A DNA stretch of 23,844 nt from Oscillochloris sp. ZM17-4 (GCF_019599295.1 NZ_JAIEWN010000016.1:59839-83682), one strand, 5' to 3'. Shown: positions 8,013 to 23,303, numbered from the stretch's first letter. Numbers and translations are program-made. The notes: generated from the sequence alone by a model not told the origin.

Positions 8013-8075
8013 TCTAGTGCCGTTAGCCGGCAGTATAGCACATCTGCGCGGGGGGTGTCTCCCCGCAGGGCGGCC

Positions 8076-8147
8076 GGGGGTGGCGAAGCCACCCCCGAAG
8101 GTTTTTAGTGGGATTTTGGCGGCGAAGCCGCCAAAATCCCACTAAAA
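8076..8147. repeat. Two adjacent perfect palindromes with GAA loops and a GGC-GAA-GCC centre: a 9-bp stem (8076-8096) and a 21-bp stem (8103-8147)
   Basis: 'gggggtggc gaa gccaccccc' and 'ttttagtgggattttggcggc gaa gccgccaaaatcccactaaaa' are each an exact reverse complement around a 3-nt centre. Confidence 0.9.
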
Positions 8148-8207
8148 GCAGGGTCTGGGGCTGCGCCTATGCGTATCACGTTAGGCCCCGGGCTCCCCGG
8201 AATTCCC

Positions 8208-8260
8208 TGTTGTTTTGGCCAACATGGCCAGCTTCGCTGGCCATGTTGGCCAAAACAACA
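8208..8260. repeat. 25-bp-stem perfect palindrome with a TTC centre
   Basis: 'tgttgttttggccaacatggccagc ttc gctggccatgttggccaaaacaaca'. The core 'atggccagc-ttc-gctggccat' is identical (in reverse complement) to the core of the palindrome at 22376-22420. Confidence 0.9.
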
Positions 8261-8296
8261 CCAGTTTTTAGGGCCGCAGCCCCAGGACTCTGTAGC

Positions 8297-8305
8297 TGCT
8301 ATAAT
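8297..8305 (+). promoter_or_regulatory. Extended -10 element (TGcTATAAT) for yggX. An 11-bp direct repeat 'gtatccagcag' x2 lies in the leader (8321-8346)
   Basis: 'tgctataat' sits 56 nt upstream of the ATG at 8361, with no convincing -35. A direct repeat with a 4-nt gap occurs between the -10 and the RBS. Confidence 0.45.
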
Positions 8306-8360
8306 CATAGGACAGCTATGGTATCCAGCAGCGATAGTATCCAGCAGAAGGTGAACCGCT

Positions 8361-8669
8361 ATGCCGCGTATGGTCAACTGTGTGAAGATAGGCCGCGAGC
8401 TGCCGGGGCTGGATCGCCCGCCCTTCAGCGGGCCGCTCGGCCAGCGCATCTTTGAGAGCGTCTCCCAGCAGGCCTGGGCGCTCTGGCCGGCCCAGTCGAC
8501 CCTGATCATCAACCACTACGGGCTGAGCCTGGGCGACCCGAACGCCCAGAAGATCCTGCTCCAGCAGATGGAGGAGTTCTTCTTCGGCGAGAAGGCCCGC
8601 ATGCCCGAGGGCTGGACGCCTCAGCCGGCGGCCCCGGCGGCCAAGGGCGCCGGGCCGAGGCGGAAATGA
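8361..8669 (+). CDS. yggX: Fe(2+)-trafficking / oxidative-damage-protection protein of the YggX family
   Basis: 'MPRMVNCVKIGRELPGLDRPPFSGPLGQRIFESVSQQAWALWPAQSTLIINHYGLSLGDPNAQKILLQQMEEFFFGEK' aligns along its whole length with E. coli YggX ('...[58 protein letters not shown]'). RBS 'gaaggtga'. Confidence 0.85.
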   Translation: MPRMVNCVKIGRELPGLDRPPFSGPLGQRIFESVSQQAWALWPAQSTLIINHYGLSLGDPNAQKILLQQMEEFFFGEKARMPEGWTPQPAAPAAKGAGPRRK

Positions 8670-8670
8670 T

Positions 8671-8704
8671 GGTGTAGGGATGCAGCGTGCTGCGTCCCTA
8701 CACC
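8671..8704. terminator. Bidirectional hairpin (16-bp stem with one G.U pair) shared by convergent yggX and the ATP-grasp gene. It overlaps the ATP-grasp stop codon
   Basis: 'ggtgtagggatgcagc gt gctgcgtccctacacc'. The core 'gtagggaYgcagcgtgctgcgtccctac' recurs at 19318-19353. Confidence 0.6.
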
Positions 8705-9936
8705 ATTGGGATGTTCGGCATGATCTCGAAGGTGAGGCATGCGTGGGCCGCGCGCAGGGCCGCCTCGGCCTCGGCGGGCGCGGCGGCGCGGGCGAAGATG
8801 AAGCCCAGGTAGCTGTCGCCCTCGGGCAGGGGCACCAGGGGGTAGTGCAGGGGCGCGCTGATCTCGACGCGCTCCACCCCCGGCACCGCCCGCGCATCCT
8901 CTAGGCCGCGCACCGCCCGCAGCACCCCGGCCTGCGGGATGGGGATCATCATCACCCCGCCTGCGCCGCCTGTGCGGCCCAGCGACTCCGCCGGCAGCCC
9001 GGCGGCCTGGCTCAGGATCAGCTCCTCCAGCGAGGCGTCGGTGCCGAACTGGAGCGTCTGCGAGCAGAGCCCGCCGATCGTGCGCCCGGCCAGCTCGACC
9101 ATCCACGGCCCGCGATCGTTCACCCGCAGCTCGGCGTGGAGCGGCCCGCGCTCCAGCCCCACCGCCGCCGCCGCCCGCGCCGCCACCGCCCCGATCTGGG
9201 CCTGCGCCTCGGCCGGCAGCCGCGAGGGCGTCACGTAGAGCGTCTCCTCGAAGAACGGCCCGTCCAGCGGGTCGGGCTTGTCGAAGAGGGCCAGCACCCG
9301 CAGCTCGCCGCCGTCGATCACGCCCTCCAGGGCCACCTCAAAGCCGGGGATGAAGTCCTCGGCCAGGAAGGGCTTCGGCCCCGGCGTGGGGTCGACGCGC
9401 TCAAGCAGGCGCGAGATGCGCCGCGCGGCGGCCACGAACTCGGCCGGGCCGTCGGCGCGGATCACCCCCCGGCTGCCGTTGAGCCGCAGCGGCTTCAGCA
9501 CGCAGGGGTAGCTGACCTGCGCGGCCAGCAGCCCCAGATCCTCGCCGGTGGAGCAGAGCCGGAAGGCCGGCGAGGGCACGCCGGCCGCCGCGAAGAGCCG
9601 CCGCATCAGGTGCTTGTCGCGGGCCGCCTCAGCCGCCTCGGGCCGGTTGTGGGGCAGGCCGAGGGCCGCGCTGGCCCGCGCGGCCACCATGGCCCCGCTG
9701 TCGTCCACGGCGATCACGGCGGCCAGGGGCGCCTCGGCGTGGATGGCCAGGATATCGGCCAGGGCGCGGCCCTCGTCATTGAAGTCGATGCCGACCCGGC
9801 CGCCCAGCCGGCCGGCCATGGCCGCCGGCGCATCCTCGGCCACCAGGGCGCGCACGCCCAGCCGCTCGGCCGCGCGCATGAATGCCTCCAGCCGGTAGGA
9901 CGACGGGGTGGTCAGGAGCAGGATCTGCTGGCGCAT
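8698..9936 (-). CDS. ATP-grasp domain protein, L-amino-acid-ligase / carboxylate-amine-ligase-like
   Basis: Start chosen at 'MRQQILLLTTPSS' (ATG 9936-9934); the listed longer ORF begins in repeat DNA. 'EAARDKHLMRRLFAAAGVPSP', 'YPCVLKPLRLNGSRGVIRA' and 'FLAEDFIPGFEVALEG' match the ATP-grasp fold of BacD/YwfE-type ligases. Confidence 0.7.
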   Translation of the reverse strand: MRQQILLLTTPSSYRLEAFMRAAERLGVRALVAEDAPAAMAGRLGGRVGIDFNDEGRALADILAIHAEAPLAAVIAVDDSGAMVAARASAALGLPHNRPEAAEAARDKHLMRRLFAAAGVPSPAFRLCSTGEDLGLLAAQVSYPCVLKPLRLNGSRGVIRADGPAEFVAAARRISRLLERVDPTPGPKPFLAEDFIPGFEVALEGVIDGGELRVLALFDKPDPLDGPFFEETLYVTPSRLPAEAQAQIGAVAARAAAAVGLERGPLHAELRVNDRGPWMVELAGRTIGGLCSQTLQFGTDASLEELILSQAAGLPAESLGRTGGAGGVMMIPIPQAGVLRAVRGLEDARAVPGVERVEISAPLHYPLVPLPEGDSYLGFIFARAAAPAEAEAALRAAHACLTFEIMPNIPMV

Positions 9937-10018
9937 AGTTTGGTGCATCTCATACCAACTGGAATTGAGCAATCCGCATACGCGCCGCCGCCAGAGCGCG
10001 TTGAAACGCCATGCACGG

Positions 10019-10050
10019 CAATCTGCAATCCAAAATCTGCAATCTGCAAT
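10019..10050 (+). repeat. (CAATCTG)n heptamer array, 4.5 units with one degenerate. The same heptamer recurs at 20199-20223
   Basis: 'caatctgcaatccaaaatctgcaatctgcaat' lies between two minus-strand genes. Confidence 0.9.
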
Positions 10051-10054
10051 GGTA

Positions 10055-12103
10055 TCAGTCTCGCGTGAGCAGCTTCGACGCGGACTCCAGCGCCGTGTCG
10101 GCGGCGCACACCCGGTTCCGCCCGGTCGCCTTGGCCATATAGAGCGCCCGGTCGGCCGCGCGCAGCAGCGTGTCGCCATCGCCGCCGTGGGCGGGGAAGC
10201 TCGCCACGCCGGCCGAGATCGTGCAGCGCAGCTCGTGGCCGCCGTACTCGACGCACATATCGGCGAAGGCCTGGCGCAGATCGTCGGCGCGCTCCAGTGC
10301 CATGTCGAGGGTGGCGGTGGCCATGATCACCACAAACTCCTCGCCGCCGTAGCGGCAGGCCGTGTCCATCTGGCGGGTGTGACCGTGCAGCAGCGCGCCC
10401 GTGGCCTGGAGCATGAGGTCGCCGGCCCTGTGCCCGTAGGTGTCGTTGAGCTGCTTGAAGTGGTCGATGTCCATCATCATAACACTAAGCGGGGCTTGCT
10501 CGCGCGCGGCGTGGGCCAGCCCCTGCTCGAGGATCTCTTCCATGTAGCGCCGGTTGAACAGGCCGGTGAGCACATCGTGGGTGGCCTGCTCGCGCAGCTG
10601 CGCCTGGAGCTGCTGGATCTCGGCCAGCTGCGCCTGGAGGCTCTGGTTCGCCGCGCGCAGCGCCTCGTCGGCCCGCCTGCGCTCGCTGATGTTGCGGCCG
10701 ACCCCGTTGATCGCAAGCTGGCCGGTCTCCGGGCTGATGTAGTAGTGGGTCACAATCTCCACCCAGACCGCCGAGCCATCTTTGTGCGGCTGCTCAAGCT
10801 CGTTGACGAAGGTGTGCTGGGTCGGGTCGGCCAGAAATGTGGCGATCCGCTGCTGGATCAGCCCATGGATCGCCGCCTGCATATCCGGCGGCAGCCCATG
10901 ATAGACGACTTGGCCCAGCAGCTCCTCCGGCTTGTAGCCCTGGAGCTGCTCGATCGATGGGCTGATATAGGTCAAGCGCAGGCTCTGGGTGTCGATGCTC
11001 CAGATCACATCCTGCATGTTCTCGGCCAGCAGGCGGTAGCGCCGCTCGCTCTGCCGCAGGGCCTCCTCGGCCCGCTTGTGCGCGGTGACATCGTGCAGAA
11101 TGAACAAGTGCCCCACCGGCCTGCCGCGCCGATCATTGATCGTCGAGACGACGAGGTCGTAGGTGCGCTGCCGCGCGCCGACGCCGACCGTCACCTCAGA
11201 CGTGCCCGCTGACGTGCGAGAGTGGCCCCGAAGCAGATCGGCCCAGTCGGGTGGCAGCGCCTCGACCGGCTCGCCGATAGCCTGCGCGGGCATCCCGCAG
11301 GTGACCTTCGCGGCGCTGTTCACGTCGGCGATCTGCCCCTGTGTGTCTAGCACGATCACCAGGTCCTCGATATGATCCATCACCGCACCGCGGGCGATCG
11401 GGACAATGATGAAGATCTGGCCGTGCAGCAGCGCCCAGCCGTAGATCACGCCGGTGCAGGCGAGCAGCATTGGCGTCCAGGCATAGCCGGGCAAGGGCGT
11501 GATGCGTAGCGTGGTGAGGATGTCGGCCAGGAAGGGGATGAGGATGCCCAGGATGAGCAGCAGCATTTCCCGCCGGCGCTGCGCACGGGTCACCAGGGAT
11601 ACGGCGAGGATCGCCAGCGCGCAGATGGTGAGCACGCTCCCGTACCCGTAGTAGACCCAGTACCAGGGGCCTCGGCTGAACACAACATTGCTCAGCGGGC
11701 CCTCGGCGATCAGCCGGGGGCTATGGCGAAACAGCGGGTAGAGCGGCGGGGTCAGGGTCAGCACGACGGTGACGGCAGGGATGATCAGGAGGGCTGCCAG
11801 ACGTTGGCGGGTGATCCATGCGGCGTGGCCGGTGTACTGGATCACCATGGTCAGGATGGCCGGCGCGATGAAGCCGCCGGGGATGTAGATCAGGCGGAGC
11901 AGGAGCACGCGCAGCTCAAGCGGGGCGACGACCAGGCTGAGGGCGAAGATCAGCGAGAACAGGGAAGACAGCCACATGAGCATGCGGAAGGGCCGGCACG
12001 CCGGCAGGCGGCGATAGTAGCCGGCGTAGACGGCGATGGAGGCGAGGAGCACGGCGCTGGCGAGCGGTAGCCAGACGTAGGGCGTATAGAGCATGGCCCA
12101 CAC
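10055..12103 (-). CDS. Membrane sensor diguanylate cyclase: N-terminal ~8-TM domain, tandem PAS domains, coiled coil, GGDEF domain
   Basis: GTG start with 'ggaggtg' RBS. Hydrophobic N-terminal 230 aa. PAS-like 'VIWSIDTQSLRLTYISPSIEQLQGYKPEELLG'. GGDEF core 'DVLTGLFNRRYM', 'MMDIDHFKQLNDTYGHRAGD', 'RYGGEEFVVIM', 'LYMAKATGRNRV'. Confidence 0.85.
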   Translation of the reverse strand: MWAMLYTPYVWLPLASAVLLASIAVYAGYYRRLPACRPFRMLMWLSSLFSLIFALSLVVAPLELRVLLLRLIYIPGGFIAPAILTMVIQYTGHAAWITRQRLAALLIIPAVTVVLTLTPPLYPLFRHSPRLIAEGPLSNVVFSRGPWYWVYYGYGSVLTICALAILAVSLVTRAQRRREMLLLILGILIPFLADILTTLRITPLPGYAWTPMLLACTGVIYGWALLHGQIFIIVPIARGAVMDHIEDLVIVLDTQGQIADVNSAAKVTCGMPAQAIGEPVEALPPDWADLLRGHSRTSAGTSEVTVGVGARQRTYDLVVSTINDRRGRPVGHLFILHDVTAHKRAEEALRQSERRYRLLAENMQDVIWSIDTQSLRLTYISPSIEQLQGYKPEELLGQVVYHGLPPDMQAAIHGLIQQRIATFLADPTQHTFVNELEQPHKDGSAVWVEIVTHYYISPETGQLAINGVGRNISERRRADEALRAANQSLQAQLAEIQQLQAQLREQATHDVLTGLFNRRYMEEILEQGLAHAAREQAPLSVMMMDIDHFKQLNDTYGHRAGDLMLQATGALLHGHTRQMDTACRYGGEEFVVIMATATLDMALERADDLRQAFADMCVEYGGHELRCTISAGVASFPAHGGDGDTLLRAADRALYMAKATGRNRVCAADTALESASKLLTRD

Positions 12104-12384
12104 CTCCGGCAGAGGACACTGTCATAGTGATGTCCTTAGGGCGATGGTTATTTTACTGCTGTTTTAAAAGATGAAGAGTGAGGGAAGATGGAATGAGATT
12201 ATACACCCTGTGTCAAGCGACGCATCGGGCTTTTGCAGGAAGGCGACACAAATAGCGTGCATAGCCGCAGTGGCTGGCACGAGTTTCTGAGTACGGCGAA
12301 GCCGCCTCGGTGGGTGACGAGGTTACAAGACTTATGCCAGCGCTACAGGTACTCAGGAGCGAACTGCTCCTCGGTGGGCTCCGC

Positions 12385-13749
12385 TCAGCAGTACCAGGGC
12401 TCGCTCAGGTAGGGGATGGGCGGGCGGGGCAGCAGGTGCGCCAGGCTAGGCCGCGCCCCCGCGCCGATCTGGGAGTCCACCAGATCCCACAGCTTCTCAA
12501 AGAATTGCGCCCGTGTCTCGCCGCGCGGCCCGCTGCCCTGGGCCAGCCGCAGCGCGGCCCGCTGGAGCGTGTCCATCGCCGGATCGGGGTGGCGCCAGGG
12601 GTAGACCAGCCCGGCCGGGTCGAACGGCCCGACCAGATCCCTGACCTCGTCGAGGTGGAGCAGCCAGGAGCCGGACGGGATGAGCAGGCGGATGGCGTAC
12701 TGCACCGGCGAGACGCTCTCGACCAGGCCGAGCTCAGTGATCGCGCGCAGGAAGTCGGCATAGACCTGGCGGCTCGTCCAGGGCGTGAAGGCCACAAAGG
12801 TCGCGTTCAGGCCGACCCCGGCCTCGCGCAGCAGCCCGGCGGCGCGGGCCACATCATCGCGGGTGTGGCGCTTGTCCAGCCGCTCAAGGATGCCCTCGTC
12901 CAGCGCCTCGACCGCGCTCGTCACCAGGGCGCAGCCGGTGTCGCGCAGCTCGGGCAGCAGCTCGGCGTGGCGCAGCAGGTGCTCGACCTTGATCGTCACA
13001 TCGTAGGTGATGCCGGGGTGCTCGGCGTGCAGGGCGCGCACGATCTTCATTGCGTGGCCGGGCCCGTTGAGGAAGTCCGGGTCGCCGAAGGTGATATGGG
13101 CCGCCCCGGCGGCCACCTGGCGGCGCACGTCCTCAAGCACCACATCCCTCGGCACGGTGCGGAAGCGCCCGCCGTAGACGGGGACGATCGGGCAGTGGCG
13201 GCAGGTGTGCTTACAGCCGCGGCTAGCCTCGGTGTAGCCGGCGGCCCGCCGGCCCTCGGCGGTGATCAGGGCGGCGTAGGCCAGCGGGCCGGGCAGGCCG
13301 GCGCGGTCGGGGGGGATGAACGACAGTAGGGGCGTAACAGCGCGCCTGCTCTCATCTGCTGAGGATTCATCTGCCGCTGTTGCGCCCCTACCCTTGTATA
13401 TATCCACCAGGGCGGCCTCAAACTCCCCGCCGACGCAGGCGTCGGCGCCGAGCGCGCGCAGATGATCGGCGTTGAGCGGGGCGTAGAGGCCGTAGCAGAC
13501 GATGGTGGCCTGCGGGGCGAGGGCGCGCAGCTCGGGCAGCAGCTCGGCGGCCAGGCGGGTGGCCGTGTGCATCGGCACATACAGACCGATCAGCGCCGCC
13601 CGCGCCGCCGCCGCCCGGTCGAGCGGCTGGAGCGAGGTGTCGATAGCGAGCACCTCGGCCCCGGCGCGGCGCAGCCATGCCGCCGGCGAGGCCAGCCCGA
13701 AGGGCTGGTGCCCGAGCTCGTAGGTTGAGATCAGCAGCGCGAGAGGCAT
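12385..13749 (-). CDS. B12-binding-domain radical SAM enzyme (class B)
   Basis: N-terminal Rossmann-like B12 domain 'MPLALLISTYELGHQPFGL...IVCYGLYAPLN'. Radical-SAM cluster motif 'SRGCKHTCRHCP' (CxxxCxxC). 'ITFGDPDFL'. The start codon abuts the heptamer array, with no SD. Confidence 0.8.
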   Translation of the reverse strand: MPLALLISTYELGHQPFGLASPAAWLRRAGAEVLAIDTSLQPLDRAAAARAALIGLYVPMHTATRLAAELLPELRALAPQATIVCYGLYAPLNADHLRALGADACVGGEFEAALVDIYKGRGATAADESSADESRRAVTPLLSFIPPDRAGLPGPLAYAALITAEGRRAAGYTEASRGCKHTCRHCPIVPVYGGRFRTVPRDVVLEDVRRQVAAGAAHITFGDPDFLNGPGHAMKIVRALHAEHPGITYDVTIKVEHLLRHAELLPELRDTGCALVTSAVEALDEGILERLDKRHTRDDVARAAGLLREAGVGLNATFVAFTPWTSRQVYADFLRAITELGLVESVSPVQYAIRLLIPSGSWLLHLDEVRDLVGPFDPAGLVYPWRHPDPAMDTLQRAALRLAQGSGPRGETRAQFFEKLWDLVDSQIGAGARPSLAHLLPRPPIPYLSEPWYC

Positions 13750-13751
13750 AA

Positions 13752-13905
13752 TGAATGTTGAATGTTGAATGCTGAATGTTGAATGTTGAGTGGGTGGGGG
13801 TTTCGAAAGCTGGAGCTAGTATAACACGCCGCATAGCCTACAAAGCGCTCCATCTGCCCGGCGCCCTTGGCATTCAACATTCATCATTCATCATTCATCA
13901 TTACC
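13752..13905. repeat. Inverted heptamer arrays: (TGAATGT)5 at 13752-13789 and the complementary (CATTCAN)5 at 13871-13905, separated by about 80 nt
   Basis: Read directly. The right array supplies the TAA stop (13901-13903) of the MVP-like gene. The left array abuts the ATG of the radical-SAM gene. Confidence 0.9.
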
Positions 13906-15289
13906 GCGTCTGGATGCGCAGGTCCACGTCCTCGGGGGTGAAGAAGAGGCTGGCGCTGCCGGCGCTGAGCGCGGTCAGAGCCTCCTGCTTGCGCAGAGTC
14001 TGGAAGACGGCCAGCTTCTCGGCGGGGGCCAGCTCGGCGCCGAGGGCGTCGAGGAAGGCCCGCACCCGCCCGGCCTCGGCGGCCCCGCCGATCTCGGCCT
14101 GAGCCAGCTCCACGATGCGGCGCACATCCATCAGCCGACCGCGCAACTCCTCGGCCTCGGTCTCGCCGCGGATCTGGCGCAGCCGCACCTCGTTCTCGCT
14201 CTCCTGCTGCTGGAGCCGGTTCAGCCGGTTCGTCGTCTCCTGGATGATCTCCTGCAGCACCCGCTGGGTCGCCGGGTCCTTGCAGGCGACCGCGCGCACC
14301 TCGACGGCGTGCAGCACCACCCCGCGCTCGGCGTAGAAGCCGTCGGCCCCGCCCAGCACCGCCTCGCGGATGATCGCGTTGAAGGCGGCCAGGAAGCGCT
14401 CCAGGCTCACCTGGGAGACCGACTGGATGATCTGGCTGCGCGCGTGTGAGCAGACGTCGCCGGGCGTATCGTCGGTGGTGCGCACCATGCCCTGGACATC
14501 GACGATCTGCCAGAAGAAGGTGATCCCGATCGTCAGCTCGACGTTGTCCTGGGTGCGGGCCTCAAGCTCGTACCACATAAACTTCGGGCGCTGGTCGAGG
14601 TGGGTGATCTTCAGCTCGCGGCGGTCCTTGTGCAGGCCGCTCGACCAGCGGAAGGTGACCAGCTCGTCGTAGGGGCCGAGGAAGAAGGCCCGCTCGGCGT
14701 CGGCCCCGCTGCGGATGCGGTAGGCCCCGCTGCGCTCCTTGATCACCACGGCCTCGTGGTCCTCCAGGCGCACCCGGCGGCGCACCTCGACGACCTGCTG
14801 GGTCGGCGCGGGCGCGAAGACCTGCGGCGCGATGATCAGCTCCAGCCCGCCGGCGACGGTGTCGCGCACCAGCACCGCCGTCTGCTCATCGATGTTGATC
14901 CCGTCGCGCACATCCTCCAGGATGGCCTCGGTCGGGCTGAGGACGACCCGCCCCTCGCCGCGCTCGACCCGGATCGCGCCGCTGCTCTGGTCGAGCAGGC
15001 GCAGGTACTGGCCGCGCTTGAGCGGGATGGCCTGGAGCTGCTCGTCCACCTCCTCGCCGGGGCCGAGGAAGACCAGCCTCGGGCCGACCTCGTTGCGCAC
15101 CTCGCCGCTGAGCGTGTCGCGCACGCGCAGGTAGTCGGTTGGGCCGAGGGCGATCGCCTCGCGCCGGCTGACGCGGGAGAGGGCCGGCGTGATCACCGCG
15201 CCGGGGCCGTTGGCCACCCGCCGGCGGGTCGGCGTCTCGATCAGCAGCTGCTCGTCCTCCTTGAGGAAGGCCACCCATGGGATGATCAT
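13901..15289 (-). CDS. Major vault protein (MVP) homolog: about 3-4 MVP repeats, SPFH-like shoulder domain and C-terminal coiled coil (cap-helix-like). 463 aa
   Basis: Start chosen at 'MIIPWVAF' (ATG 15289-15287, 'aggag' 7 nt upstream); the listed ORF's first 53 aa translate the palindrome and leader. Repeat region 'FLGPGEEVDEQLQAIPLKRGQYLRLL' resembles eukaryotic MVP '[30 protein letters not shown]'. Shoulder 'DNVELTIGITFFWQIVDV...TPGDVCSHARSQIIQSVSQVSLERFLAAFNAIIREAVLG' resembles 'DHARLQLQLAYNWHFEV...[42 protein letters not shown]'. 'IIQETTNRLNRLQQQESE' resembles '[24 protein letters not shown]'. Confidence 0.7.
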   Translation of the reverse strand: MIIPWVAFLKEDEQLLIETPTRRRVANGPGAVITPALSRVSRREAIALGPTDYLRVRDTLSGEVRNEVGPRLVFLGPGEEVDEQLQAIPLKRGQYLRLLDQSSGAIRVERGEGRVVLSPTEAILEDVRDGINIDEQTAVLVRDTVAGGLELIIAPQVFAPAPTQQVVEVRRRVRLEDHEAVVIKERSGAYRIRSGADAERAFFLGPYDELVTFRWSSGLHKDRRELKITHLDQRPKFMWYELEARTQDNVELTIGITFFWQIVDVQGMVRTTDDTPGDVCSHARSQIIQSVSQVSLERFLAAFNAIIREAVLGGADGFYAERGVVLHAVEVRAVACKDPATQRVLQEIIQETTNRLNRLQQQESENEVRLRQIRGETEAEELRGRLMDVRRIVELAQAEIGGAAEAGRVRAFLDALGAELAPAEKLAVFQTLRKQEALTALSAGSASLFFTPEDVDLRIQTR

Positions 15290-15312
15290 CGCGGTGCTCC
15301 TGTGTCTTGTGT

Positions 15313-15360
15313 AAGATAGTGCTATACTGACACTAATTAGTGTCAGTATAGCACTATCTT
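15313..15360. promoter_or_regulatory. 48-bp perfect, spacerless, AT-rich palindrome in the promoter/leader of the MVP-like gene. Candidate operator for a dimeric regulator
   Basis: 'aagatagtgctatactgacactaa' at 15313-15336 is the exact reverse complement of 'ttagtgtcagtatagcactatctt' at 15337-15360. It is about 67% AT in a 70%-GC genome. It lies 24 nt upstream of the MVP start and contains TATACT/AGTATA and TTGACA hexamers. Confidence 0.6.
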
Positions 15361-15416
15361 GACAAAACGCAAGCACACATCCCGCTGCTCGCCTGGGCGA
15401 GCACCGTGGCTCGCCC

Positions 15417-16005
15417 CTACTGCTGCTGCTGCATCTGCTGGGCCTCAAGCTCCGCCTCGGCGGGGGTGGGCGGGGCGATCGCCGGCAGCACGCCCTCGTC
15501 GGGGATGAAGGCCTCGGTGGGCACCACCTTCACGCCCACCTCCAGCGAGCTCTCGGCGCGCCCGCGGTAGACGCCCTTCGTCGGCGGGACGTCGGCGTAG
15601 TCGCGGCCGACGGCGACGCGGATGTGGCGGTCGCGGGCGATCAGGTTGTTGGTCGGGTCGAAGCCGACCCAGCCGAGGCCGGGCAGGAGCGCCTCAACCC
15701 AGGCGTGCGAGGCGTCGCGCTCGGAGCGGTCGTGGTCCTCGACGCGGTGGTAGAGGTAGCCGCTCACATAGCGGCAGGGGATGCCCAGCGGTCGCACCAG
15801 GGCGATCATAATATGGGCGAAGTCCTGGCAGACGCCCTTGCGTTTGGCGAGGGCCTCATCGATCGGCGAGTCGACCGTCGTCGTCTGCGGCGCGTAGGCG
15901 AAGGTGCGGTACATGCGCCCGGTGATCTCGTGCAGGAGCGAGAGCGGGTCGCCGCGGCGGCGGAGGTCGAGCTGGCTCGACAGGGCGCTCAGCAGGGGCG
16001 AGGGG
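15417..16005 (-). pseudogene. Transglutaminase-like (Cys-His-Asp) core domain, 5'-truncated gene fragment with no start codon
   Basis: 'LLHEITGRMYRTFAYAP...KRKGVCQDFAHIMIALVRPLGIPCRYVSGYLYH...DASHAWVEALLPGLGWVGFDPTN'. High GC3 on the minus strand persists only to about 16005. Further upstream the minus frame is antisense-like junk, with no ATG/GTG plus RBS. Confidence 0.7.
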
Positions 16006-16010
16006 CGGCG

Positions 16011-16487
16011 GTGATCCTCGGCGGGATGGCCCTGCTGGCGATGAACGTCGAGCGCTTCAACCTGCTGGGGGCCAGCAGCGGCGTGCGCGTGCAGACCTGG
16101 GCCTCGGCCCTGGCCATGCTGCGCGACCACCCGATGGGCGTCGGGCTCGACCAGTTCGGCCGGCTCTACCCGCAGTACATCGACCCGGCGCTCGCCGCGA
16201 CAAACGAGATCAACACGGCCCACCCGCACAACTTGCTGCTCGACATCGCCCTGCGCATGGGGCCGCTCGGCCTGATCGCCTTCGGCTGGCTGCTGGCGAT
16301 CTTCTACCGGCGCATGATCGCCAGGGCTGGCCAGCCGTCGCCCATGCGGGCCGTATATGTCGGCGCCCTGGCGGCCATGACCGGCGCGCTGGTCCACGGC
16401 ATGGTCGACTCCTTCTACTTCTGGCCCGACCTGGCCCTCGCCTTCTGGCTATTCCTGGCCCTGGCGATCTGGCCCGCGGCGGAGTAG
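16011..16487 (+). pseudogene. O-antigen ligase (Wzy_C/WaaL family) C-terminal ~160 aa, 5'-truncated fragment
   Basis: 'VRVQTWASALAMLRDHPMGVGLDQFGRLYPQYIDPALAATNEINTAHPHNLLLDIALRMGPLGLIAFGWLL...' is the periplasmic loop plus last TMs of O-antigen ligases, which are normally 400+ aa with about 12 TM. The listed plus ORF upstream of 16005 is antisense to the transglutaminase fragment. Confidence 0.65.
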
Positions 16488-16541
16488 CGCAGAGCGTAGC
16501 GCGTAGAGCGGCAAACATCCTGTGCTCTGCGCTCTGCGCTC
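16487..16541. repeat. Inverted heptamer-type arrays (AGAGCGT-like x3 and GCTCTGC x2) forming a 10-bp perfect inverted repeat 'gcgcagagcg'/'cgctctgcgc'
   Basis: Read directly, immediately after the TAG of the O-antigen-ligase fragment. Confidence 0.8.
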
Positions 16542-16601
16542 ACGTGATACAATGTCCCTGTATCAACCCATGCGCCCAGGGGGCGCCGGAGGCCCAGGAT
16601 C

Positions 16602-16799
16602 ATGCCCTTCTACAAAGACATGCCGCTCGTCTGCCGCGCCTGCGGCGAGACATTCATCTTCACTGCCGGGGAGCAGGAGTTCTACGCCGACAAGGGCTTC
16701 CTCAACGAGCCCACGCGCTGCCCGAAGTGCCGGGTGCGCCGCGAGAGCGCCGGCGGGCGCGGGCGGCGGGATGCCAAGGAGGTAAAAGGTAAAAGGTGA
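16602..16799 (+). CDS. Small Cys4 zinc-ribbon protein (zf-trcl, 'probable zinc-ribbon domain' family)
   Basis: 'CRACGETFIFTAGEQEFYADKGFLNEPTRCPKCR' matches the zf-trcl pattern C-x2-C-G-x-F-x-F-x3-E-Q-x-F-Y-x3-G-F-x-N-x-P-x-R-C-x2-C-R. RBS 'ggagg'. A TACAAT -10-like hexamer lies at 16548-16553, inside a 7-bp inverted repeat (tgataca/tgtatca). Confidence 0.75.
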   Translation: MPFYKDMPLVCRACGETFIFTAGEQEFYADKGFLNEPTRCPKCRVRRESAGGRGRRDAKEVKGKR

Positions 16800-16838
16800 A
16801 AGGTAAATCTTTTACCTTTCACCTTTTACCTTTTACCT
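16780..16838. terminator. 28-bp-stem perfect hairpin built from GGTAAAA heptamers with a 3-nt loop. Bidirectional terminator spanning the stop codons of both convergent genes
   Basis: 'aggtaaaaggtaaaaggtgaaaggtaaa tct tttacctttcaccttttaccttttacct'. The TGA at 16797-16799 and the minus-strand TGA (tca at 16819-16821) both lie inside the arms. Both proteins therefore end in ...VKGKR. Confidence 0.75.
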
Positions 16839-17730
16839 TTGCCCTCAGCACGCCGGGCGTCATCTGGATGCTGATCAGATCGCTGTTACGGATGTATGGC
16901 TGATCCAGGTCGCCTTCTTCAGTGTAATCCAACGCCTCGGCCAAGGCTAACACCTCGCTGCCAGTATGGATGCGGTAAGGAAAGCCCCAGGCCGCCGTGC
17001 CGCGCATGAAGATGAAGGCCCGCCGCGCCGGCCAGGCCTGGTCGATCGCGAAGTCATCGGCCCTCGGCGCGGGCCGGTAGCCGCCGCCCGGCCCCTGCGG
17101 CCGGCGCGGCATGCGCCCCGCCGCCAGCAGGCCGACGGCCTCGGCCAGCAGCCGCCCGCCCAGGGCCGCCGCCCGCCCCTCGACCTCCTCCCAGCCCGCG
17201 CCCGCTGCCAGATCGGCCCCGCCCTGCGCCACGATGTCGCCCGTGTCCAGCCCCGGGTCCATCAGGTGTACCGTCGCCCCGACGCGCTCCGCGCCCGCGC
17301 GCAGCGCCCAGAAGATCGGCTCGGGGCCGCGCAGATCGGGCAGCAGGGAGGGGTGGACGTTCAGGAAGCCGTGGCGGGGCAGGCCCAGCAGGGCCGGCGG
17401 GATGCGCCAGGGCCAGCACGCCACACAGGCCAGGTCGGGCCGCAGCGCGGCCAGGGCGGCCAGCGCCGCCGCGCCGGCGGGCCGGCCGAGGGCCAGGGCC
17501 GGGATCGCGTGGGCGGCCGCGATCTGGAGGATGTTCGGCGGCGCGGCCCCGGCGAGCGGCAGCAGCCCCGCTGGCGCGGGCGTCGGCGGCAGCCGGGCGA
17601 GCGGCGGCGCCCCCGGCGGCGCGGGCACGGCCACACACACCACCTCGGCCCCCGCGTCGAGCAGGGCCGCCAGCGGCGGCGCCGAGAAGCGCCCCGGCAT
17701 CCCGAAGAAGAGTACCCGTAGCGGCTGCAT
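16819..17730 (-). CDS. fmt: Methionyl-tRNA formyltransferase family protein (Fmt-like, both domains). An alternative start lies 10 codons upstream at 17760
   Basis: 'MQPLRVLFFGMPGRFSAPPLAALLDAG' is Fmt N-terminus-like. The catalytic region 'HGFLNVHPSLLPDLRGPEPIFWALRAGAERVGATVHLMDPGLDTGDIVAQ' matches the Fmt 'HxSLLPxxRG...TGVT.H.M....DTGD' motifs. The listed 541-aa ORF's N-terminal 238 aa are antisense-like junk. Confidence 0.75.
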   Translation of the reverse strand: MQPLRVLFFGMPGRFSAPPLAALLDAGAEVVCVAVPAPPGAPPLARLPPTPAPAGLLPLAGAAPPNILQIAAAHAIPALALGRPAGAAALAALAALRPDLACVACWPWRIPPALLGLPRHGFLNVHPSLLPDLRGPEPIFWALRAGAERVGATVHLMDPGLDTGDIVAQGGADLAAGAGWEEVEGRAAALGGRLLAEAVGLLAAGRMPRRPQGPGGGYRPAPRADDFAIDQAWPARRAFIFMRGTAAWGFPYRIHTGSEVLALAEALDYTEEGDLDQPYIRNSDLISIQMTPGVLRAKVKGKR

Positions 17731-17787
17731 CGCTCGGCATTGTACCATCGCCGACAGCATCAGCCCGCCCCGGTCGCCCCGCTCCCC

Positions 17788-17803
17788 TGGCACGCTTCTT
17801 GCT
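17788..17803 (+). promoter_or_regulatory. Consensus sigma-54 (-24/-12) promoter 'TGGCACG-cttc-TTGCT' 52 nt upstream of rpoN. A near-identical copy lies in inverted orientation at 17820-17835 ('TGGCCCG-cttc-TTGCT' on the minus strand), facing the fmt-like gene
   Basis: Read directly: 'cctggcacgcttcttgctcctgtggcatgatgccagcaagaagcgggccacc'. The forward copy matches every conserved position of the sigma-54 promoter consensus. The two copies form an imperfect 48-bp palindrome around the 'ggcat g atgcc' centre. Confidence 0.6.
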
Positions 17804-17854
17804 CCTGTGGCATGATGCCAGCAAGAAGCGGGCCACCAGCGAGGAGCAACGCCA

Positions 17855-19210
17855 ATGTTTGAGATGTCGATGAGCCCCGAGATGGGCCAGCGCGTCACGC
17901 CGGCCCTGCTCAACCTGGCCCACCTGCTCAGCCTGCCGAGCATGGCCCTGGAGCAGGCCGTGCGCCAGGAGCTTGAGGAGAACCCCGCCCTTGAGGAGGT
18001 GGAGGCCGAGGACTCGCTCTGCCCGCGCTGCGGGCGGCCGCTCATCGAGGGCGTCTGCCTGCGCTGCGATCTCCCCTCGACCGGCGACGATCTCTCCGGC
18101 TCCTCGCCCGATGACGACGGCCTCGACCCGCTGCTCTTCGTGGCCGCGCCGCGCTCGCTCAGCGAGTCGCTGCTCGACGACCTCTGCGCCAGCCTGCCCG
18201 CCAGCGAGCGCCCGATCGCCCTCGCGCTCATCGGCAGCCTCGACGACCAGGGCTTTCTCCTCGACGCACCCGACGATATCGCCGCCAGCCTGGGCGTCGC
18301 CCCCGCCCGCGTCGTGGCCGCCCTGGAGCGCCTGCGCGAGATCGGCCCGCCGGGGATCGCCGCCCGCGATAGCCGCGAGTGTATGCTCGCCCAGATCGAC
18401 GACCTGGCCGACCAGGGCATCGCGCACCCCCACGCCCGCGCCATCGTGGACGCGCACCTGGAGGATCTCGGCGCGCGCAGCTACCGCAAGATCGCCCGCG
18501 CCCTGGGCGTCAGCGTCGCCGAGGTCGCCGACGCCCGCGCCTTCATCGCCGCGAACCTCTGGCCCTACCCCGCCCAGTCCGCCGACCCCTCCGCCCGCGC
18601 CGCCTCGCGCACCCGCTACCGCACCCCCGACATGGCTATCAGCATGATCGAAGGCGCCTTTATTGTCGAGGTGCTCAACTCCCAGCGCCGCGCCCTGCGC
18701 CTCAACCCGCTCTACCAGGAGCTCTCCGCCCGCGCCGCCACCCTCGAAGACGCTGAGCGCGCCCACGTCCAGGAGTTTATCTCCCGCGCGCGCGTCTTCC
18801 TGGCCAACCTGCGCCAGCGCGAGTCGACCCTCAAGCGGATCGGCGAGGTCATCGTCGAGCGCCAGGACGGCTTCCTTCGCTACGGCGTGCGCCACCTGCT
18901 CCCCCTCACCCGCGCCGAGATCGCGGTGACGCTGTGCATCCATGAGTCTACGGTCAGCCGGGCGATCAGCGATAAGACCGCCCAGATCCCCGCCGGCGAC
19001 CTGCTGCCCGTCAGCGAGTTCTTCGTGGCCGCCCGTGGCGTCCAGGATGTGCTGCGCGCGCTCATCGCCGCCGAGGATACGTCCAGCCCGCTGAGCGACC
19101 AGGCGCTCGCTGCGCAACTGGCCGACCTCGGCTACCCGATCGCCCGCCGCACCGTGGCGAAGTACCGCGATGTCATGAAGATCCCGCCCGCCCAGATCCG
19201 CGGCGCGTAG
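17855..19210 (+). CDS. rpoN: RNA polymerase sigma-54 factor RpoN, with a CxxC-x7-CxxC zinc-ribbon-like insertion after region I
   Basis: RBS 'gaggag'. Region I 'LLNLAHLLSLPSMALEQAVRQELEENPALE'. HTH and RpoN box 'ARRTVAKYRDVMKIPPAQIR' at the C-terminus. Insertion 'CPRCGRPLIEGVCLRCD' at residues about 56-72. Confidence 0.95.
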   Translation: MFEMSMSPEMGQRVTPALLNLAHLLSLPSMALEQAVRQELEENPALEEVEAEDSLCPRCGRPLIEGVCLRCDLPSTGDDLSGSSPDDDGLDPLLFVAAPRSLSESLLDDLCASLPASERPIALALIGSLDDQGFLLDAPDDIAASLGVAPARVVAALERLREIGPPGIAARDSRECMLAQIDDLADQGIAHPHARAIVDAHLEDLGARSYRKIARALGVSVAEVADARAFIAANLWPYPAQSADPSARAASRTRYRTPDMAISMIEGAFIVEVLNSQRRALRLNPLYQELSARAATLEDAERAHVQEFISRARVFLANLRQRESTLKRIGEVIVERQDGFLRYGVRHLLPLTRAEIAVTLCIHESTVSRAISDKTAQIPAGDLLPVSEFFVAARGVQDVLRALIAAEDTSSPLSDQALAAQLADLGYPIARRTVAKYRDVMKIPPAQIRGA

Positions 19211-19317: not shown

Positions 19318-19368
19318 CGCCGTAGGGACGCAGCGTGCTGCGTCCCTACGGCGTTCTCTTTTTTTGTT
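19318..19368 (+). terminator. Rho-independent terminator of rpoN: 17-bp GC-rich stem followed by 'ttctctttttttgtt'
   Basis: 'cgccgtagggacgcagc gt gctgcgtccctacggcg' plus a T-run. The core is the same as the hairpin at 8671-8704, with compensatory outer base pairs. Confidence 0.85.
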
Positions 19369-19405
19369 AAAATTCTCTATTGATATAAAATATTTCGCCA
19401 AACTA

Positions 19406-19434
19406 TTGACAAATTTTTCTCAGAGTGATAATAT
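19406..19434 (+). promoter_or_regulatory. Near-consensus sigma-70 promoter: TTGACA, 17-nt spacer, extended -10 TGaTAATAT, plus an A/T-rich UP-like tract. It sits in a 140-nt AT-rich island
   Basis: 'TTGACAaatttttctcagagTGaTAATAT' is preceded by 'ttaaaattctctattgatataaaatatttcgcc'. It lies 68 nt upstream of the ATG at 19502. The region 19355-19495 is about 65% AT. Confidence 0.65.
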
Positions 19435-19501
19435 TGACGTGATGATAGTGAAAAGCGACATCGTGATGGTAAATATTACTATAAGGAAAGCGAGGCCGCC
19501 C

Positions 19502-19759
19502 ATGCTGCACGACACCTACCTGCACGAGCGGCTCGCCCGCGCGGCGGGGGAGCCCAGCAAACGCGAGATCGCCACCCGGCTCGCCATCGCCGAGCTGCGC
19601 CTGCGCCCGGGCCTGGCCCGCCGCGCCGCCCGCCGCGGCGGCCGGCTGCTCATCCGCGCCGGCGCGTGGCTGATGGCCTACGGCGCCGGGCGCGAGGCCC
19701 GCCTGCGGCGCAGCGCGCTGCGCACCCACCCCTCCGTCACCACATGCTCGCGAAATTAA
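19502..19759 (+). CDS. Small hypothetical protein (85 aa), Arg-rich with one hydrophobic helix. First gene of the cassette
   Basis: High GC3 in frame. RBS 'gaggccgccc' region. 'LLIRAGAWLMAYGAG' is hydrophobic. No recognisable family. The listed ORF start at 19364 lies in the AT-rich promoter and is unlikely. Confidence 0.5.
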   Translation: MLHDTYLHERLARAAGEPSKREIATRLAIAELRLRPGLARRAARRGGRLLIRAGAWLMAYGAGREARLRRSALRTHPSVTTCSRN

Positions 19760-19772
19760 CGAGGAGACCGCC

Positions 19773-20132
19773 ATGCACCGCCTCATCACCCGCGACCCCG
19801 TCAGCGGCGGGGAGCTGATCGTCACCCGCCTAGAGTGCCCCGAGAGCGGGATCGTGATCGAGGGCCAGTTCAGCCTCGGCTGGCTCGGCCGCCTCACCTC
19901 CGAGCAGCTCGACTTCGTCGAGGCGCTCATCCGGAGCCGGGGCAATGTCCAGAAGGCCGCCGCCGAGCTCGATATGGCCTACAACACCGCCCGCGCGCGC
20001 CTCGATGAGCTCGCCACCACTCTCGGCGGCACCCCCGAGGGCGACGGCCGCTCCGACCGCCGCCAGATCCTCGACCGGCTGGCCTCCAAGGATATCAGCG
20101 TCGAGGACGCCATGCGCATGCTGAAGGGATAG
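19773..20132 (+). CDS. DUF2089-family protein (degenerate N-terminal zinc ribbon + HTH) with a SHOCT-like C-terminal tail
   Basis: RBS 'gaggag' 7 nt upstream. 'GGELIVTRLECPESGIVIEGQF...LTSEQLDFVEALIRSRGNVQKAAAELDMAYNTARARLDEL' matches the DUF2089 pattern (CPxCGGEL.VTRL.C..CGT.IEG.F...LS.EQL.FIE.FI..RGNIKE.E..LGISYPTVR.RLDEV). Three of the four Cys ligands are replaced: D/S at the first CPxC, S at the second. Confidence 0.75.
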   Translation: MHRLITRDPVSGGELIVTRLECPESGIVIEGQFSLGWLGRLTSEQLDFVEALIRSRGNVQKAAAELDMAYNTARARLDELATTLGGTPEGDGRSDRRQILDRLASKDISVEDAMRMLKG

Positions 20133-20198
20133 CGCGGATTCATGCAGCCTTTTTAGCGTGCGCTAGCCCATATATGGCATCTGAGTGACGGCTCCGTC

Positions 20199-20223
20199 CA
20201 ATCTGCAATCTGCAATCTGCAAT
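20199..20223 (+). repeat. (CAATCTG)x3.5 heptamer array ending in the palindrome TGCAATTGCA, 18 nt upstream of the next start codon
   Basis: 'caatctgcaatctgcaatctgcaattgca'. The same unit occurs at 10019-10050. Confidence 0.9.
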
Positions 20224-20240
20224 TGCACGAGGTGACACCC

Positions 20241-20606
20241 ATGACCACCCCCGGCGGCGAGCGCAACCGCATCCTGAAGATGATCGAGGCCGGCCAGGTC
20301 TCCGCCGACGAGGCGGCCCAGCTGCTCGACGCGATCGGCCCCGCGCCGCGCCCCGTCGACCGGCAGCGCTCGCGCCTGGTGCGCGTCCGCGTCACTAACC
20401 TGCACACCGGCCGCCAGAAGGCCAACGTGACCATCCCGGTTAGCCTGGTGAATGTCGGGCTGCGCCTTGGCGCCCGGCTGGCCCCCCAGCTCAGCGGCAG
20501 CGCCCTGGAGGATCTGATCCGCAGCATTGAGGGCGGCGCAACCGGCCGCCTCCTTGAGTGGCAGGATCTGGAAGAGGGCGAGCGCGTCGAGCTTATTGTC
20601 GAGTAA
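20241..20606 (+). CDS. SHOCT-like N-terminal domain protein: the head module usually fused to DUF4097 proteins, here as a separate ORF
   Basis: ATG 20241 with 'gaggtg' RBS (the listed TTG start at 20223 lies in the repeat). 'ERNRILKMIEAGQVSADEAAQLLDAIG' resembles the N-terminal 'ILKMLEEGKISAEEA..LLEAL' motif of YvlB/LiaG-type DUF4097 proteins. Confidence 0.6.
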   Translation: MTTPGGERNRILKMIEAGQVSADEAAQLLDAIGPAPRPVDRQRSRLVRVRVTNLHTGRQKANVTIPVSLVNVGLRLGARLAPQLSGSALEDLIRSIEGGATGRLLEWQDLEEGERVELIVE

Positions 20607-20624
20607 CTGAGGAGGACCCCCATC

Positions 20625-23218
<2,594 letters not shown>

Positions 23219-23266: not shown

Positions 23267-23303
23267 AGTGTACCATCATCCGACTCCCTGCTATACTGAG
23301 GCC

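Follow-up and report, generated by a model that had tools for sequence, protein, structure and literature searches.

Convergent sigma-54-type sites upstream of rpoN in Oscillochloris and its close relatives: predicted self-regulation of sigma-54 in Chloroflexota

The rpoN gene of Oscillochloris sp. ZM17-4, a filamentous anoxygenic phototroph (Chloroflexales, Chloroflexota), lies within the 23.8-kb stretch of DNA analysed here (the window). Its open reading frame (Table 1) is the true and complete gene for sigma-54: the product is 100% identical to an Oscillochloris sp. ZM17-4 protein, its translation contains the RpoN box ARRTVAKYR, and the Pfam domains Sigma54_AID (PF00309), Sigma54_CBD (PF04963) and Sigma54_DBD (PF04552) are all found in it above cut-off. 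A formyltransferase-like gene (fmt-like) is read in the opposite direction, and the two are separated by an intergenic spacer of 124 nt. In this spacer lie two sequences of the -24/-12 type characteristic of sigma-54 promoters, one facing rpoN (P1) and the other mirrored on the opposite strand (P3), so that they converge. These two sites, and the control that they may exert over rpoN, are the subject of this report.

P1 and P3 are the only matches to TGGCACG-N4-TTGCT with at most one mismatch in the window. Dinucleotide shuffles of the window predict 0.06 such matches, and two or more were present in 0 of 100 shuffles. Both sites had been noticed in an earlier reading of this DNA from its sequence alone (the sequence-only reading), and both were recovered, P1 without a mismatch and P3 with one. 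The spacings given then were essentially right and need only trivial correction: 16 nt rather than 17 separate the motifs, and 51 nt rather than 52 lie between P1 and the rpoN ATG. In each site the GG and GC dinucleotides (at 17789-90 and 17801-02 in P1) are exactly 10 bp apart, a spacing that sigma-54 promoters demand. P1 is intergenic and at a promoter-like distance from rpoN, with a Shine-Dalgarno sequence between it and the ATG. The position of P3 is not meaningful in the same way, as the neighbour at which it points is not conserved.

Together the sites span 48 bp. A repeat search reported them as an inverted repeat with 31-nt arms of 74% complementarity, and a small perfect palindrome, TGGCATgATGCCA (17808-17820), overlaps the spacer between them. 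With 20 bp from one -12 element to the other, P1 and P3 would melt the same 16 bp. The start of P1 is predicted at ~17814 on the + strand, leaving a leader of ~41 nt, and that of P3 at ~17809 on the - strand. Counted from the predicted start of P1, P3 covers +7 to +22. On a candidate sigma-A promoter that lies between the two sites, P3 covers -3 to +13 and P1 covers -35 to -20.

Table 1. Positions of the rpoN upstream sites and adjoining features, numbered from the first nucleotide of the window
Feature	Position	Strand	Remarks
P1, -24/-12 element TGGCACGCTTCTTGCT facing rpoN	17788..17803	+	0 mismatches to TGGCACG-N4-TTGCT; 12/12 consensus
P3, mirrored -24/-12 element TGGCCCGCTTCTTGCT, convergent with P1	17835-17820	-	1 mismatch; 11/12 consensus
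16-bp spacer between the two -12 elements	17804..17819	.	read from sequence; would melt from either site
TGGCATGAT, candidate weak sigma-A extended -10 (TGnCATGAT) between P1 and P3	17808..17816	+	predicted start ~17823
Shine-Dalgarno GAGGAG of rpoN	17841..17846	+	8 nt 5′ of ATG; read from sequence
rpoN (sigma-54)	17855..19210	+	451 aa; region I, core-binding and DNA-binding domains, RpoN box, Cys4 insertion
Formyltransferase-like (fmt-like) gene	16819..17730	-	303 aa; Pfam Formyl_trans_N; divergent from rpoN
Extended -10 of the fmt-like gene, TGGTACAAT	17739..17747	-	ends 8 nt 5′ of ATG; pattern search and sequence

Because it has region I and the RpoN box, the encoded sigma-54 should read canonical GG/GC promoters and need an enhancer-binding activator protein (bEBP). 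A search for such activators, which the sequence-only reading had called for, gave a positive answer: the same organism encodes, outside the window, an NtrC-type bEBP (P0178, sigma-54 dependent transcriptional regulator; PF00158). A single TGT-N10-ACA (17741-17756) was tried as a NifA-type activator site and rejected; it is specific to the window and, read on the other strand, is the extended -10 of the fmt-like gene.

The RpoN protein has a feature of its own between region I and the core-binding domain, where residues 56-71 (18020-18067) form a Cys4 motif, CPRCGRPLIEGVCLRC. All 14 Chloroflexales RpoN compared keep its four cysteines, and the pattern C..C-N(5-14)-C..C is present in all eight Chloroflexota rpoN loci of the control set described below as against 0 of 63 from other phyla. 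The motif looks like a phylum-specific zinc-ribbon insertion in region II of sigma-54, of which our literature search found no description.

To follow the sites among close relatives, the window was aligned with four fetched rpoN loci (Chloroflexales bacterium ZM16-3, here L081, and L085, L089 and L148; 77-81% RpoN identity), which with it make up the subclade. TGGCAC-N5-TTGC is kept at -66 to -76 from rpoN in all five genomes. Invariant throughout are TGGCAC and TTGC of P1 and, on its own strand, GGC, CG and TTGC of P3 (GGC..CG....TTGC). P3 is thus conserved in L081 (CGGCACGCTTCTTGCT), L085, L089 and L148 (TGGCCCGCGTCTTGCA), and with it the 48-bp span. In L148 the P3 spacer reads CGTC and TTGCA stands for TTGCT, both changes being at positions where the consensus has N or W; L081 has CGGCAC for TGGCCC, one change being towards the consensus and the other at position 1, the least important. 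The P1 spacer reads GCTTC, ACTTC or, in L085, AACCT, and the last abolishes complementarity with the right arm, where there is no compensating change. The central 16 bp, the same or nearly so in four of the genomes and diverged in L148, are by this comparison under weaker constraint than the arms at their consensus positions. The spacers, the flanks and the leader close to the Shine-Dalgarno sequence diverge too; the Shine-Dalgarno itself (GAGGAG/GAGAGGAG) is kept in four of the five, with GAAGGTG instead in L148. Conservation in both arms therefore tracks the sigma-54 consensus and not the palindrome or its centre.

Similarity between the subclade loci starts ~3 nt 5′ of TGGCAC, and all DNA further upstream is unrelated. 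The fmt-like gene adjoins rpoN in the window genome only. Its place is taken by ftsK, 240-540 nt off, in L081, L089 and L148 and by a prenyltransferase-like gene in L085, and P3 stays beside rpoN whichever of the three is upstream. Two other candidates were dropped. A third sigma-54 site, TGGCATGATGCCAGCA (17808-17823, 9/12), has lost its GG in L089 and is gone from L148; to read it as resembling an extended -10 is more fitting. A repeated or mobile element was considered as well; the right-arm pattern occurs once per locus, and its occurrences are confined to rpoN and other sigma-54 promoters.

On the other side of rpoN the subclade shares a conserved cluster (19364-23060, + strand, in the window), which encodes a small hypothetical protein (hyp), a DUF2089 protein with zinc-ribbon and helix-turn-helix, a SHOCT-like DUF2089-C protein and a large DUF4097 (toastrack) protein. 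The order rpoN-hyp-DUF2089-SHOCT-DUF4097 is found in exactly the five genomes with the mirrored P3 and is missing in L149, a locus outside the subclade that is also without P3. Two extended -10 elements, at 19365 and 19426, belong to the cluster itself.

Sites facing rpoN are not confined to the subclade. Scanning metagenomes with an RpoN fragment specific to the clade, supplemented by look-ups, yielded 19 non-redundant Chloroflexales-type loci, and a site was accepted in these when it had GG and GC and matched at least 10 of the 12 consensus positions. Such sites face rpoN in at least 10 of the 19. With the stricter demand of at least 11/12, on the + strand and within 300 nt of rpoN, eight loci qualify, against 0.0145 expected from shuffles. 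The arrangements are varied. A 12/12 site at -68 follows directly on a bEBP gene and so lies between that gene and rpoN (L104); two tandem sites face rpoN in L149; the site precedes a bEBP-rpoN operon in L099 and a small membrane-protein gene located 5′ of rpoN in L084. In L093, L097 and L092 the sites are at -133, -135 and -168, respectively, and a separate, conserved extended -10 (TGCTAYNAT; TGCTACGAT, TGCTACTAT) is nearer to rpoN than they are. In L092, L093, L097, L099 and L084 the sigma-54 site is far upstream of the rpoN promoter and does not overlap it. In several loci the distance from the sigma-A promoter is too large for occlusion and the orientation is always towards rpoN, which argues for promoter function and not for occlusion alone. 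That the rpoN-facing site is a working promoter, and not merely an occlusion site, is the simplest reading of these arrangements. The clade also uses the motif at ordinary promoter positions, for example 5′ of yggT-like and other small membrane-protein genes. No sigma-54 site precedes the bEBP ortholog of ZM16-3; a loop from sigma-54 to bEBP and back to sigma-54 is therefore not general, and was seen only in L099.

The control set consisted of rpoN loci returned by a full-length RpoN alignment scan, which picked the universal RpoN-box pattern and distant phyla only. Among its 72 rpoN loci, sites occur in few cases: two Anaerolineales genomes (Chloroflexota), with a 12/12 site at -57 from rpoN, and Chthoniobacter (L035) and Paraburkholderia (L039), with -24/-12-like sites ~60 nt 5′ of the gene.

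Paired sites of another geometry turned up in the same survey. Back-to-back sigma-54 pairs are found ~150-220 nt 5′ of rpoN in L091, L092 and L097, where one site drives a yggT-like gene, and a divergent pair of this kind is at 6523-6569 of L084. Further sigma-54 sites in L084 precede a transglycosylase-associated (GlsB/YmgE-type) gene and an 81-aa reading frame, which hints at a Chloroflexales sigma-54 regulon centred on small membrane or envelope-stress proteins. In a distant clade of soil Chloroflexota (L109-L146) there is a conserved + strand site ~685 nt 5′ of rpoN (e.g., L130 670-709, L120 1074-1089). It lies at the 3′ end of a divergently oriented gene for 155-170 aa and would transcribe antisense through that gene towards rpoN; in L130 it has a back-to-back partner. 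The soil-clade site was left out of the support count.

The main sigma factor has to be considered next to sigma-54. A pattern search found 16 extended -10 elements of the form TGnTAnnnT in the window, where 6.6 are expected, preceding ftsK, the yggX-like, radical-SAM and fmt-like genes and genes 3′ of rpoN (8032-8040(-), 8297-8305(+), 13818-13826(-), 17739-17747(-), 19365-19434(+) and 23267-23297). This suggests that sigma-A promoters of Oscillochloris sp. ZM17-4 are mainly of the extended -10 type. At the fmt-like gene no Shine-Dalgarno is present in the sequence between the element and the ATG, and the mRNA is probably leaderless or nearly so. No canonical TGnTAnnnT copy belongs to rpoN. 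The weak candidate between P1 and P3 has a TGnCATGAT that is kept in four of the five subclade genomes (window, L081, L085 and L089), including L089 with its GG to GT change. L085 and L148 have a canonical TGCTAnTAT (TGCTACTAT / TGCTAATAT) exactly over the -12 TTGC of P1 (overlap sequences TTTGCTACTAT in L085 and TTGCTAATAT in L148), from which the start would nearly equal that of P1. This overlap of a sigma-A element with P1 resembles the sigma-54/sigma-70 promoters of glmY. A nested sigma-A promoter would solve the bootstrapping problem of a sigma factor made only by itself.

A related locus, L083, may record an exchange between the two promoter types. At ~-128 to -100 from its rpoN ATG, TGGCACACTTGATGTATAAAT retains a -24 half identical to that of L081 (GCATGGCACACTT), and an extended -10-like TGTATAAAT stands in place of the -12 half. 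This suggests that a sigma-54 promoter was converted in evolution to a sigma-A promoter at the same place.

From these observations we propose a model of three parts, which taken as a whole we hold to be somewhat better than an even bet. P1 would be a sigma-54-dependent promoter of rpoN with its start near 17814, at which sigma-54 drives its own synthesis when a bEBP is active. Basal expression, independent of sigma-54, would come from the weak nested extended -10 TGGCATGAT, its counterpart in the relatives being the canonical TGCTAnTAT exactly over the -12 element. P3 would act in cis: a sigma-54 closed complex there would cover the early transcribed region of P1 and the sigma-A start, and compete with or occlude initiation at rpoN, adding a self-limiting negative arm. 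Without active activator, a closed complex at P1 may likewise compete with or occlude initiation towards rpoN. The parts do not stand equally firm. Holoenzyme very probably binds P1 in vivo. That P1 transcribes rpoN is a good deal less certain, though we favour it, and we lean to a similar degree towards holoenzyme binding at P3. The role of P3 as a cis brake or competitor is tentative, and we would put it at rather less than an even chance. The sequence-only reading had taken rpoN to be sigma-54-dependent, and P1 does behave as a sigma-54 promoter in the comparative analysis. The matches, the conserved consensus positions, the indifference of the sites to the upstream gene, the lack of covariation in RNA and the occurrence of sigma-54 and a bEBP in the organism are shown; the binding, the start sites, the sign of the regulation and the role of P3 are what we infer. 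It had also suggested that the face-to-face promoters interfere with each other. P3 is real, conserved and head-to-head with P1, and interference itself is still a live idea.

A more elaborate form of the proposal would make the pair a self-limiting switch. The stronger P1 would raise the level of sigma-54 and the weaker P3, sharing the same 16-bp melting region, would shut the gene down: as sigma-54 accumulates, holoenzyme at P3 would occupy the early transcribed DNA as well as the basal start and close both. We think this form unlikely, albeit worth stating. If true, a sigma factor would be competing with itself in cis, a kind of autoregulation that is not known to have been described for any sigma factor.

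Several points weigh against the three-part model. Its main weakness is the missing enhancer: activator sites are usually 70-150 bp upstream, and the five-genome comparison revealed no conserved one. The result would still allow for activators working from solution, bound downstream or bound at sites that evolve fast. The nested sigma-A candidate is non-canonical, with C at hexamer position 1, and is missing in L148; a generic scan of the region for sigma-70 promoters and terminators gave no match. A sigma-54 site near rpoN was not found in 6 of the 19 related loci. P3 in particular is found in only five close relatives, all of which share the DUF2089 cluster, and lineage effects cannot be separated from function in so narrow a group. 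Should a second rpoN paralogue be present, the control would be cross-regulation instead of autoregulation. We know of no experimentally mapped sigma-54 promoter start or binding site in Chloroflexota. The brake at P3 is further weakened by what is seen in E. coli, where intragenic sigma-54 closed complexes form no roadblock (PMC4591121).

The same sites could serve repression only. Sigma-A alone would then transcribe rpoN from the nested extended -10, P1 would never fire productively, and P1 (over the -35) and P3 (over the +1) would be operators at which silent closed complexes occlude the sigma-A promoter and so hold sigma-54 at a set level. There is precedent: the rpoN of R. leguminosarum is negatively autoregulated, according to work cited in PMC3538637, and sigma-54 represses where its site overlaps another promoter, both in E. 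coli (PMC4591121) and at glmY, where sigma-54 binding represses the overlapping sigma-70 promoter (Reichenbach et al., 2009, as cited in PMC3045617). The local geometry is also favourable. The sites bracket TGGCATGAT at -35..-20 and -3..+13, the canonical extended -10 is exactly over the -12 element in L085 and L148, no conserved activator site is found upstream, and a flanking pair fits occlusion better than activation. However, in sister lineages the sigma-54 site is 65-100 nt 5′ of the sigma-A extended -10, and elsewhere an entire bEBP-rpoN or small-gene-rpoN operon lies behind it; in neither arrangement is occlusion possible, and the site still always faces rpoN. P1, moreover, is a full 12/12 match at a typical promoter-to-ATG distance, and rpoN is without the canonical TGnTAnnnT that its neighbours carry. 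Repression alone thus seems to us rather unlikely, although not to be dismissed. Another use of P3 would be as a working divergent or antisense promoter for the upstream gene or for a non-coding RNA, with P1-P3 interference as a side effect. Its 11/12 match and its conservation would suit such a role, and inverted sigma-54 pairs do drive divergent genes in the clade (yggT-like/rpoN in L091, L092 and L097; also L084 and L130). Those pairs are back-to-back, however, not head-to-head. At P3 the upstream gene varies and is 57 to ~540 nt off, across unrelated, repeat-rich DNA; ftsK and the fmt-like gene have extended -10 promoters of their own; and the five-genome comparison showed no conserved RNA- or peptide-coding sequence 5′ of P1. 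For these reasons the function of P3 must be local. We regard a divergent promoter as improbable, and the specific assignment of P3 to the fmt-like gene, made in the sequence-only reading, as no better and perhaps worse: P3 is kept where ftsK or the prenyltransferase-like gene is the neighbour, and the fmt-like gene has TGGTACAAT.

The symmetry of the element invites two explanations in which sigma-54 has no part. The palindrome might be the operator of a dimeric regulator, for example the DUF2089 protein encoded two genes downstream, its likeness to -24/-12 elements being coincidental. In favour are the inverted repeat, with TGGCATgATGCCA as a perfect palindrome at its centre, and the distribution of the DUF2089 cluster, present with P3 and absent in L149. 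But the invariant arm positions are the recognition positions of sigma-54, the symmetry is broken by the left arm of L085 and by the centre of L148, and the same motif faces rpoN without a palindrome in distant relatives. The chance of an unrelated operator matching 12/12 and 11/12 is ~1e-6 per site, and the cluster has extended -10 elements of its own. We consider this operator highly improbable. The arms might instead pair in RNA, and the sequence-only reading had proposed a shared leader hairpin (cttcttgc...gcaagaag) in the 5′ untranslated region of rpoN, which would set translation or stability. The 78-nt region does fold well (-36.5 kcal/mol, z = -3.3), but this stability is merely that of an inverted repeat. 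In the five-genome alignment none of the 16 pairs of the outer helix has a compensatory change, six pairs vary only by unpairing, L085 breaks six pairs from the left-arm side with no change on the right, and no covariation measure for the helix rises above shuffled controls. The left arm is upstream of either predicted start, and a search with the TGnTAnnnT pattern found no promoter-like element on the + strand further upstream. When the leader is taken to begin at the predicted P1 start, it has no structure beyond that of shuffled sequences in four of the five genomes (z +0.75 to +2.45; L085, -1.77), the window leader from ~17813 being unstructured (z = +1.56), and Rfam has no match for the rpoN upstream element. 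With no covariation, no Rfam match and the left arm outside the predicted transcript, we ruled out a hairpin or attenuator, which has hardly any likelihood left.

The surroundings of rpoN in the window differ from those in the relatives in one further respect. The divergent neighbour in L081, L089 and L148, ftsK, is at 5478-8012 in the window, ~9.7 kb (8013-17730) from rpoN. The intervening DNA encodes a yggX-like protein, an ATP-grasp ligase, a 7TM-PAS-GGDEF protein, a B12-radical SAM protein, an SPFH protein, a transglutaminase-like protein and the formyltransferase, and is either an insertion or the result of a rearrangement. One of its products, of 515 aa (13901-15448, - strand), has an SPFH/Band 7 domain and, besides, weakly matches the shoulder and repeat domains of the eukaryotic major vault protein (PF11978 at 28 bits; PF17795 below cut-off). 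The spacer between ftsK and the yggX-like gene contains two long, near-perfect, hairpin-forming inverted repeats (8095-8150 and 8205-8265; e.g., tttttagtgggattttggcggcgaagccgccaaaatcccactaaaa and gttgttttggccaacatggccagcttcgctggccatgttggccaaaacaac). In L081 the spacer between ftsK and rpoN is likewise full of GC-rich repeated hairpins, and the repeats of both spacers may be elements akin to repetitive extragenic palindromes (REP-like).

Control of rpoN by its own product has precedents, and the view of the sequence-only reading that it would be unusual was overstated. A comparative study of 2025 found sigma-54 promoters enriched 5′ of rpoN (COG1508) in many bacterial classes and cites Geobacter and Dokdonia as documented cases; Chloroflexota does not appear in its main text (PMC12316311). 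Autoregulation of both signs is on record (PMC6925177, PMC3538637). In R. capsulatus, rpoN has a weak constitutive promoter and a second one activated by NifA and RpoN (Cullen et al., 1994, as related in PMC6925177), and rhizobial rpoN2 is found in NifA-regulated prxS-rpoN2 operons (PMC3538637). The nifU2-rpoN superoperon of R. capsulatus and the rhizobial operons have an activator-gated sigma-54 promoter combined with a weak basal one independent of sigma-54, which makes their autoregulation positive; our locus would resemble them in this, the first promoter being predicted and the second a weak candidate in the present case. They differ in that their sigma-54 promoter is upstream of nifU2 or prxS, not immediately upstream of rpoN, and depends on NifA, for which there is an upstream activator site, whereas no conserved activator site is found here; a second, convergent site and a host among the Chloroflexota phototrophs are particular to the present locus. 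The R. leguminosarum gene is alike in having -24/-12-like sites ~60 nt 5′ of rpoN and control by its own product (again predicted here), but in related Chloroflexales the site often lies at a distance from which the sigma-A promoter could not be occluded. With glmY/glmZ of Enterobacteriaceae the likeness is to L085 and L148, in the -12 and sigma-70-type -10 elements that share DNA and have nearly the same start; there, however, the product is a small RNA, activator sites for GlrR are known and there is no mirrored second sigma-54 site. The 2025 survey, like our analysis, places rpoN in its own regulon by bioinformatic inference, but describes no paired convergent sites. Nor did we find precedent for a head-to-head sigma-54 pair 5′ of rpoN in the literature searched, a limited collection. 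Self-regulated rpoN being already known, what appears to be new is its extension to Chloroflexota, with varied architectures, and the conserved head-to-head pair.

Sigma-54 is usually treated as constitutively supplied, with its regulon gated only by activators. If its level is itself under feedback, the response of the whole regulon changes, and threshold, memory and bistability come into consideration. The practical gain at this stage is modest: a testable hypothesis, together with natural variants in which sites 5′ of rpoN are convergent, tandem, divergent or at the level of the operon. The 48-bp module has the merit of being compact, and its positive (P1) and possibly negative control (P3, promoter overlap) would be separable by point mutations. 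A new principle would follow only if the head-to-head pair is functional. The Oscillochloris locus and its relatives extend predicted self-regulation of rpoN to the Chloroflexota.

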